Shown in pieces: positions 11,448 to 11,631 of a stretch of 64,000 bases of DNA. The stretch lies in assembly GCF_056712565.1 (NCBI RefSeq), contig NZ_CM160072.1; one strand, given 5' to 3'. The first letter of the stretch is position 1. Each line of letters starts with the position of its first letter. The position numbers and the translations under genes were made by a program. Under the pieces are notes generated by a model. That model was given only the letters and a program-made list of their open reading frames with translations, was not told the origin of the DNA and did not search any database.

Positions 11448-11528
11448 GGCGCGAGCTGCCTGTACGGCAGTTTACAAGTCCGTATCCGGAGATACCTCTA
11501 TTTCTAAGCTGCTCAAGGCAGTTTGGGT
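11448..11528 (-). ncRNA. candidate Cas-regulating crRNA-like RNA (CreA/CreR-like): degenerate repeat, 25-nt spacer-like segment, degenerate repeat
   Basis: minus strand reads acccaaactgccttgagcagCTTAGAAA / tagaggtatctccggatacggactt / gtaaaCTGCCGTACAGGCAGctcgcgcc; the 8-nt 5' handle and the Cas6f hairpin are conserved, the rest has decayed; possible sigma70 promoter on minus strand (-35 TTGCCA at 11552..11557, -10 TAACAT at 11529..11534). Confidence 0.55.
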
Positions 11529-11604
11529 ATGTTAGTGCTTCAACTATTGCGTGGCAAATATTAAGTTGCTTTAATATCACCTATGGTGATTACATGAGAT
11601 TTAA

Positions 11605-11631
11605 TAATATCTTTTAGAAGATATCTCTAGG
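11605..11631. promoter_or_regulatory. predicted partial target of the crRNA-like RNA (candidate Csy-complex operator)
   Basis: minus strand 5'-CC-tagagAtatctTc-3' (plus 11631 down to 11617): CC PAM, then identity to the spacer-like segment at positions 1-5, 7-11 and 13; mismatches only at 6 and 12; no pairing beyond 13. Confidence 0.5.

Follow-up and report, generated by a model that had tools for sequence, protein, structure and literature searches.

A degenerate mini-CRISPR in the cas2-3/csy1 gap of the Escherichia coli type I-F locus as a candidate crRNA-like regulator of the Csy effector

Results and discussion

[quoted passage not shown] On its minus strand, this gap holds a degenerate mini-CRISPR, hereafter creA, together with a partly matched target site flanked by a CC protospacer-adjacent motif (PAM). 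With a probability of roughly 0.65, we read creA as the gene of a CRISPR RNA (crRNA)-like guide RNA of the CreA/CreR type, with which a shortened Csy complex would repress a plus-strand transcript, amounting to autoregulation of the effector. The anatomy of the element, the uniqueness of its target and the maintenance of PAM and pairing among eight gap haplotypes of Escherichia are the observations on which this reading is built.

Anatomy of the mini-array

The upstream pseudo-repeat psiR1 (ACCCAAACTGCCTTGAGCAGCTTAGAAA, 11528-11501, minus strand) has a 5' flank unlike the repeat, followed by a shortened hairpin (CTGCCTTGAGCAG, 11521-11509) and an intact 5' handle of 8 nt (CTTAGAAA, 11508-11501). 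Next comes psiS, a spacer-like guide of 25 nt (TAGAGGTATCTCCGGATACGGACTT, 11500-11476), and then the downstream pseudo-repeat psiR2 (GTAAACTGCCGTACAGGCAGCTCGCGCC, 11475-11448), in which the Cas6f hairpin CTGCCGTACAGGCAG is that of the array repeat and the last 6 nt are degenerate. As both true arrays of the locus sit on the plus strand, the mini-array is reverse-oriented. Most of this had been described in a first-pass annotation made from the letters of the window: the minus-strand sequence quoted there for the gap was correct to the base, and the intact handle of the first element, the intact Cas6f hairpin of the last and the length of the spacer-like segment were all found as described. Its statement that psiR1 has a shortened loop was refined, in that the hairpin is indeed shortened, but in the window haplotype it consists of a 4-bp stem with a 5-nt loop.

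Compared with the repeat consensus, the two pseudo-repeats agree over 22 and about 21 of 28 nt. The canonical repeat folds into a 5-bp stem with a 5-nt loop (-8.6 kcal/mol), and the psiR2 hairpin has an energy of -9.0 kcal/mol. For psiR1, the values were -4.0 kcal/mol in the window haplotype and -6.6 kcal/mol in the other haplotypes, where the hairpin has a 5-bp stem and a 3-nt loop. Both pseudo-repeats gave sub-threshold matches to the Rfam family CRISPR-DR4 on the minus strand, with 21.8 bits at 11454-11470 (psiR2) and 13.5 bits at 11501-11522 (psiR1). When the mini-array transcript and the region of the downstream open reading frame (ORF) and its leader were folded, neither was unusually stable (z = -0.03 and +1.15), so that a structured cis-acting RNA is not supported.

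The element does not qualify as a bona fide CRISPR array, since its pseudo-repeats are non-identical and its spacer measures 25 nt instead of 32 nt. Moreover, the spacer is identical across all genomes save at positions 5 and 6, unlike in an array that acquires spacers. What it has in common with CreA/CreR mini-arrays is an intergenic position within the cas locus and outside both CRISPR arrays, two degenerate repeats around one spacer, and the retention of the upstream handle and of both Cas6f hairpins (with a psiR1 stem of 4-5 bp). In Escherichia whittamii and on the metagenome contig OAXB01000041.1, the 5' handle reads CTAAGAAA, as in the repeats of Pseudomonas aeruginosa, and not CTTAGAAA.

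The target site and its uniqueness

The target lies on the same strand as psiS, with the PAM CC at 11631-11630 and protospacer positions 1-13 at 11629-11617 (TAGAGATATCTTC); a guide of 25 nt would reach 11605. The target equals psiS at positions 1-5, 7-11 and 13 and within these first 13 positions is mismatched only at 6 and 12, exactly as the first-pass annotation had it. The PAM overlaps a Shine-Dalgarno (SD)-like AGGAGA on the plus strand (11629..11634; AGGTGA in other haplotypes), which had likewise been noticed before. In the 64-kb window the pattern CC+TAGAGNTATCTNC occurs a single time, even when one mismatch is allowed, and it was found in none of 100 dinucleotide shuffles. No further site combining PAM and seed was present in the window, not even for a 10-nt seed with one mismatch. 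The earlier estimate that such a match would arise by chance in the gap at a rate of about 1e-5 is reasonable. A guide match proximal to a CC PAM, with pairing too short for interference, is again what is found in CreA/CreR elements, and we infer that the target would not be cleaved.

Guide and target are maintained together in Escherichia

Among 5426 complete E. coli genomes, 238 carry a type I-F system, and the element was present in every one of these. According to their gaps, the 238 genomes fall into a window type (184 genomes), a group at 98.5% identity to it (16), a single genome at 80-90% and a group at 78% (37). Eight haplotypes were compared, namely these four E. coli groups, those of E. 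whittamii, Escherichia sp. E1V33 and one more E. coli strain, and that of a metagenome contig, which came to light when metagenomes were scanned with the invariant guide core. Apart from Escherichia loci, a cross-genus search for Csy1 over the species genomes of GTDB brought up Pseudocitrobacter alone. In Pseudocitrobacter, the next relative found, gap and element are absent and cas3 abuts csy1. The creA region had no BLAST match in 50,697 phage records, a search of plasmids with the whole gap gave no match, and no exact match to handle plus seed, such as a Cracr-like viral guide mimic would carry, was found in IMG/VR.

In none of the eight haplotypes is the CC PAM lost or the pairing at positions 1-5, 7-11 and 13 broken; position 14 pairs as well in most of them. 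At position 5, seven haplotypes have G in both guide and target and the MS1665 type (37 genomes and 3 metagenome contigs) has T in both, which, judged from the alignment, is a compensatory double change. Position 6 behaves differently: the guide has G or A and the target A, G or T, the two are uncorrelated, and pairing is found in four of eight haplotypes. At position 12 the target has T, A or G but never the C of the guide, so that this position is paired in none of the eight. Within PAM and seed only 3 of 15 columns are variable (positions 5, 6 and 12), compared with 14 of 19 for protospacer positions 14-32 and 13 of 13 for the segment between PAM and start codon (Fisher p = 0.005). On the side of the guide RNA, 2 of 25 columns vary in psiS (positions 5 and 6), the psiR2 hairpin is invariant in all eight haplotypes, and the psiR1 stem is kept throughout, with GTT, ATT, ATC or CTTGA as the loop. 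Guide and target are thus maintained together, as in the CreA/CreR class. PAM and pairing are kept with the six-base periodicity of type I systems. Together with the conserved promoter predicted for creA (see below), we consider this strong comparative evidence that the element has been maintained as a guide RNA gene with its cognate site. The first-pass annotation had asked whether orthologous I-F loci keep seed and PAM while element and target co-vary, and had seen in creA a guide of the crRNA kind that leads the Csy complex to a partly matched, PAM-flanked site; in the comparison, pairing was retained in each Escherichia haplotype, with one compensatory change, and this lends support to the proposed guide.

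These data leave little room for the view that creA is a non-functional relic, i.e. a decayed array fragment or an ectopic pair of repeats with a coincidental match in the target. Two degenerate repeats, a short spacer and, in the window strain, broken Csy machinery would fit such a relic. A relic would not be expected to keep a nearly invariant guide core next to sequence in which 60-100% of the columns vary, nor a target island conserved with six-base periodicity and a compensatory change at position 5. The uniqueness of the match (0/100 shuffles) and the fact that the element has its own conserved, predicted promoter (see below) speak against it as well. This reading, already disfavoured, appears very improbable.

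Predicted promoters in the gap

A promoter for creA is predicted at 11557-11529 on the minus strand, with the -35 element TTGCCA (11557-11552), a 17-nt spacer and the -10 element TAACAT (11534-11529). It was the sole sigma-70 match of a standard scan, and its predicted start near 11522 falls 1-2 nt before the psiR1 hairpin. In a position weight matrix (PWM) scan of our own it was the top-scoring site in all eight haplotypes, and none of the 6 columns of its -10 element is variable, compared with 11 of 17 in its spacer.

For the plus strand, reverse transcription PCR in E. coli LF82 detected no transcript joining cas2/3 to csy1, yet csy1 was expressed (PMC3506596), and therefore the csy promoter must be located within the gap. 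The PWM scan over the eight haplotypes together with the alignment gave two weak plus-strand candidates, both of which recur among the haplotypes. P1 (11547..11577) reads TTGCGT-17-TGcTTTAAT in the window; its -10 region is at 11570-11577, where TAATAT at 11572-11577 is conserved, and in other haplotypes it is TGn-extended. Transcription from P1 would start near 11584, which would make the target a roadblock located at about +14 to +47. In P2, with the -35 element at about 11583-11591 and the -10 element at about 11606-11613, the latter is located inside the target footprint. Between the target and the csy1 ATG, no sigma-70 candidate was among the top-ranked matches of the PWM scan in the eight haplotypes, and the terminator scan found no terminator-like site.

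The plus strand opposite to psiR2 deserves separate mention. At 11445-11475, the complement of the psiR2 hairpin is followed by TTTAC, only 4 nt past the cas2-3 stop codon, and this arrangement fails the terminator scan. The hairpin could help to terminate transcription of cas1-cas2-3, which is convergent with that of creA, and such a role could coexist with a guide function. A further explanation would dispense with guiding altogether: the hairpins would act as a Racr-like decoy for Cas6f or the Csy complex, or as the terminator of cas1-cas2-3, and the target would be an unrelated operator bound by a protein. The hairpin and TTTAC directly after cas2-3, the lack of detected read-through from cas2/3 to csy1 in LF82 (PMC3506596) and a palindrome in the target of the window (AGATATCT) are in line with it. 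Since the target palindromes differ between haplotypes in which PAM and pairing are kept, since no terminator-like site passes the scan, and since the conservation of the 5' handle and psiS and the co-variation of the target would be left unexplained, we consider it highly unlikely.

Proposed mechanism

In a CreA/CreR-type circuit, the sigma-70 promoter at 11557-11529 would start transcription just before psiR1, and the transcript would be processed by Cas6f, the endoribonuclease expected for this task (csy4; 15024..15578, plus strand, mapped onto the window from the RefSeq annotation of the identical locus). Cas6f of type I-F systems cleaves at the 3' base of each repeat hairpin. If both pseudo-repeat hairpins were cut at their base, the released RNA would be about 53 nt long and consist of the 8-nt handle CUUAGAAA, the 25-nt guide and a 20-nt hairpin; the first-pass annotation had proposed a length of about 60 nt. 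Together with Csy1-3 and Cas6f, this RNA would form a shortened Csy complex, which would read the CC PAM at 11631-11630 and pair at positions 1-5, 7-11 and 13 and, in most haplotypes, also at 14.

The truncated R-loop would hold the complex on the DNA without licensing Cas2-3. Spacers of less than 32 nt still allow the I-F1 Cascade to assemble, bind its target and form R-loops, but R-loops shorter than 32 bp fail to trigger Cas2/3, for which the wild-type length is needed (PMC7296934). With a guide of 25 nt and 13-14 pairable bases, the complex should therefore bind without cutting. It would sit on, or just downstream of, the plus-strand promoter. The repressed transcript would comprise a small ORF located directly downstream of the target and, most likely, also csy1-cas6f because there is no terminator between target and csy1. 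The effector would thereby regulate itself negatively.

State of the circuit in the window strain

In the window, csy2 (cas5f) contains an amber stop at codon 72 (CAG to TAG, 13291..13293, plus strand). The same allele, detected as an exact 51-mer, is found in 124 of the 238 E. coli genomes with a type I-F system, including UTI89 and the type strain ATCC 11775, and the I-F effector is thus probably non-functional in a large B2 clade. The amber codon should prevent assembly of the Csy complex in the window strain and the circuit is therefore probably idle there. Of the earlier proposal that Csy loaded with this RNA represses transcription at the site, the guide reading is supported, and its operation in this particular strain is improbable. 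The gap is identical in the csy2-amber strains (the 124 genomes, ATCC 11775 and UTI89 among them) and in NRG 857C, in which csy2 is intact and the gap has 100% identity.

Several observations weigh against the autoregulatory guide RNA and limit the confidence placed in it. As the module remained unchanged despite the broken csy2, the element is not under current selection in those strains. In the window haplotype, cleavage by Cas6f at the psiR1 handle is not assured because the hairpin is weakened to 4 bp. The plus-strand promoter is weakly predicted, and where it lies with respect to the target is uncertain. A complex without one Cas7f would be expected to have a guide of 26 nt, one base more than the 25 nt of psiS. 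Finally, the compensatory change at position 5 represents a single evolutionary event.

The small ORF between target and csy1

The window haplotype has a small ORF (11645..11758, plus strand) that starts with GTG, encodes 37 aa and ends 15 nt before csy1. Six other haplotypes have an ATG one codon upstream of this GTG, which opens a 27-aa ORF (MIITTGVVPFAVCVVVLKPGWATEIFQ). In the window type this ATG is lost and one additional A (between 11683 and 11685) follows codon 13, by which the C-terminal two thirds are changed. The small ORF is labelled 'hypothetical protein' in a few GenBank records. For the 27-aa form, length and SD spacing are conserved, amino-acid changes are conservative, and the variable sites are distributed over the three codon positions as 5/1/7, a suggestive bias that is not significant (p about 0.1). 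The first 17 residues of the peptide are uncharged and mostly hydrophobic, and in our own reading it resembles small membrane toxins and type I toxins. The small peptides had no match in NCBIfam or PADLOC, and tblastn against phages gave only chance-level matches (E = 9).

A longer ORF of 104 aa spanning the whole gap (11444-11758, plus strand), annotated in many GenBank and metagenome records as 'hypothetical' or 'YbhN family', was not accepted as genuine, since it would cross creA in the antisense direction. It arises where the TAG at 11615-11617 is TGG, a polymorphism at protospacer position 14. In several genomes the RefSeq locus tags skip one number between cas3f and csy1, suggesting a withdrawn gene call.

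A block at 11684-11861, which extends from the 3' portion of the small ORF across the ribosome-binding site of csy1 into the first ~90 nt of this gene, is much better conserved among the haplotypes (mean pairwise difference of 0-0.1) than the csy1 body from about 11862 on (0.25-0.38). This block could be a recombination mosaic or an unrecognised functional element.

The 27-aa ORF raises the question whether the locus is, or once was, a CreTA/CrePA addiction module. Here the ancestral peptide MIITTGVVPFAVCVVVLKPGWATEIFQ would be the main regulated product, a toxin, and the guide RNA its antitoxin; loss or inhibition of Csy, for instance by anti-CRISPRs, would release the toxin, and the window haplotype, its toxin gene frameshifted, would represent a decayed form of the module. 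The layout suits such a module, as creA and the ORF are divergent within the cas3-csy1 gap, as in the CreTA modules of Acinetobacter and Pseudomonas, and SD and ATG follow directly downstream of the target in six haplotypes. In addition, the 27 codons are kept despite a fully variable segment between SD and ATG, and the variability by codon position, the conservative replacements and the type I toxin-like N-terminus (as we read it) point in the same direction. The state of the csy genes fits too: csy1-cas6f was intact in all nine sampled genomes of the ATG type, with cas3, not needed for repression, carrying the one defect seen, whereas 124 of 200 genomes of the frameshifted type have the csy2 amber. 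This contrast would be expected of a once toxic ORF, and clonal descent could explain it equally well, so that the link with csy integrity is confounded.

Other features argue against addiction. Besides the non-significant codon bias and the absence of a family match for the peptide, the ORF has neither the consecutive rare or proline codons nor the downstream hairpin seen in known CreT RNAs, and no terminator separates it from csy1. In addition, csy2-null and csy2-intact strains share one and the same window-type module, i.e. the loss of Csy is tolerated with the module unchanged, and no addiction is enforced there. Altogether, we regard a CreTA/CrePA module as unlikely, though clearly less so than the relic or the decoy. 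To the same tentative degree, the ancestral 27-aa peptide might represent a new class of CRISPR-repressed toxin, a membrane peptide resembling type I toxins that would be cotranscribed with csy and silenced by Csy, and whose decay would be recorded in E. coli populations. If this were true, the common B2 haplotype would have lost both ATG and frame of the toxin, and only there has csy2 become a pseudogene (124/200, compared with 0/9 sampled genomes with an intact ORF).

Comparison with known CreA and CreR elements

The autoregulatory guide RNA that we favour has close counterparts in other bacteria, located at the same place in type I-F loci and, in P. aeruginosa and Acinetobacter, confirmed by experiment. 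In I-F1 loci, mini-arrays in the cas3/cas8f gap are transcribed opposite to cas3 and combine a short spacer with a CC PAM and mismatches at 6 and 12, and one from P. aeruginosa was validated (Shmakov et al. 2023, bioRxiv 10.1101/2023.03.03.530964). In CreTA1 and CreTA2 of the same species psiS measures 20 or 26 nt (Wang et al. 2026, bioRxiv 10.64898/2026.06.02.729485). The E. coli element resembles CreA1/CreA2 of these modules in its location in the cas2-3/csy1 gap opposite to cas3, in the 8-nt handle of psiR1, in the Csy4 hairpins of both pseudo-repeats, in the shortened guide (25 nt) and in PAM-proximal pairing next to a CC PAM with mismatches at 6 and 12. The P. aeruginosa RNAs repress without cleavage and Cas3 is dispensable; by analogy, the same would be expected in E. 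coli.

Apart from the repeat, there is no detectable sequence relationship between the elements of the two species. In P. aeruginosa the -35 element lies about 30 bp downstream of the target, whereas in E. coli the PAM abuts the SD of the 27/37-codon ORF, and therefore the promoter must lie upstream of or over the target. The regulated genes differ as well: in P. aeruginosa it is an RNA toxin with a 15-nt mini-ORF, two proline codons and a GC hairpin, and the E. coli ORF has neither Pro-Pro nor a hairpin.

Acinetobacter provides further I-F examples. The CreTA of Acinetobacter sp. WCHA45 was characterised by the Li laboratory (Wang et al. 2023, PMC10097628), to which the work on CreTA1 and CreTA2 of P. 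aeruginosa is also due, as is that on the CreAP module of A. baylyi ADP1, in which mature CreA carries 25 nt of psiS (bioRxiv 10.1101/2024.01.05.574328), the same number as in E. coli. Like these, the E. coli element is an intergenic module between cas3 and csy1 with creA divergent from the regulated gene, a CC PAM and an unpaired position 12. The toxins are not alike. The toxin of WCHA45, a small RNA with bactericidal action, contains a mini-ORF of 33 bp, and that of ADP1 is a 103-aa protein with a KilAC domain, while the candidate counterpart in E. coli, a hydrophobic peptide of 27 aa, is unrelated and in the window haplotype disrupted by a frameshift. According to the same laboratory, one promoter under the control of creA can serve both the toxin gene and the genes of Cascade (PMC12980059).

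CreR RNAs of types I-B, I-E and V-A derive from degenerate mini-CRISPRs and direct the effector to its own cas promoter (Liu et al. 2023, bioRxiv 10.1101/2023.03.10.532045). Their autorepression is relieved upon titration or inhibition of the effector, and the I-F examples of that study are predictions only (bioRxiv 10.1101/2023.03.10.532045). By definition, CreR has no co-occurring toxin gene, whereas the E. coli gap holds a conserved small ORF between target and csy1.

On the level of sequence, the E. coli element has the location, the anatomy, the PAM-flanked target and the joint maintenance of guide and target by which the CreA/CreR class is recognised, and weakly predicted promoters lie close to or over its target. 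It differs from the known members in the regulated ORF, in the position of the target, which abuts the SD instead of lying upstream of a -35 element, and in the host lineage. We therefore regard it as a well-supported new example of an established I-F mechanism and not as a new principle. No paper naming the E. coli element was found; an earlier listing in the supplementary tables of Shmakov et al. or of the Li group is possible, and a genome-wide screen with a threshold of 16 bp would probably have caught psiR2.

The type I-F system of E. coli, as present in LF82 and B2 strains such as UTI89, serves as a working model in which natural CRISPR immunity is studied. Descriptions of its csy operon call it constitutive, and no regulator is known. 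A crRNA-like autoregulator in the cas2-3/csy1 gap would supply the missing one, would predict induction of csy whenever anti-CRISPRs or abundant crRNAs titrate the complex, and would extend the CreA/CreR class to the Enterobacteriaceae. The compensatory pair at position 5, the free positions 6 and 12, the csy2-null strains with unchanged module and the two forms of the ORF are natural variants useful for genetic tests.

Genomic context in the window

Both arrays of the I-F locus are on the plus strand. CRISPR array 1 (6731-6998), with the repeat GTTCACTGCCGTACAGGCAGCTTAGAAA, is followed by cas1 and cas2-3 (8211-11444), and the gap then leads to csy1 (cas8f; 11774..13081, plus strand), the first gene of the csy1-cas6f operon, with csy2, csy3 and cas6f behind it. 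Downstream of a tRNA-Ser gene lies CRISPR array 2 (16119-16507), also with the repeat GTTCACTGCCGTACAGGCAGCTTAGAAA. Its first repeat (16119-16146) has one substitution in the handle (CAGTTTAGAAA), and its last repeat (16480-16507) is degenerate and with 35.6 bits just at the Rfam threshold. Elsewhere in the window, at 24833-24943 and 25873-26118 and presumably inside a large coding gene, sequence rich in CAG/CCG (Gln/Pro codons) is repeated in tandem, the periods being 39, 54, 78 and 93 nt. The enterobacterial small RNA STnc130 had a full-length match at 31182-31316 on the minus strand (Rfam RF02084, 142.5 bits).

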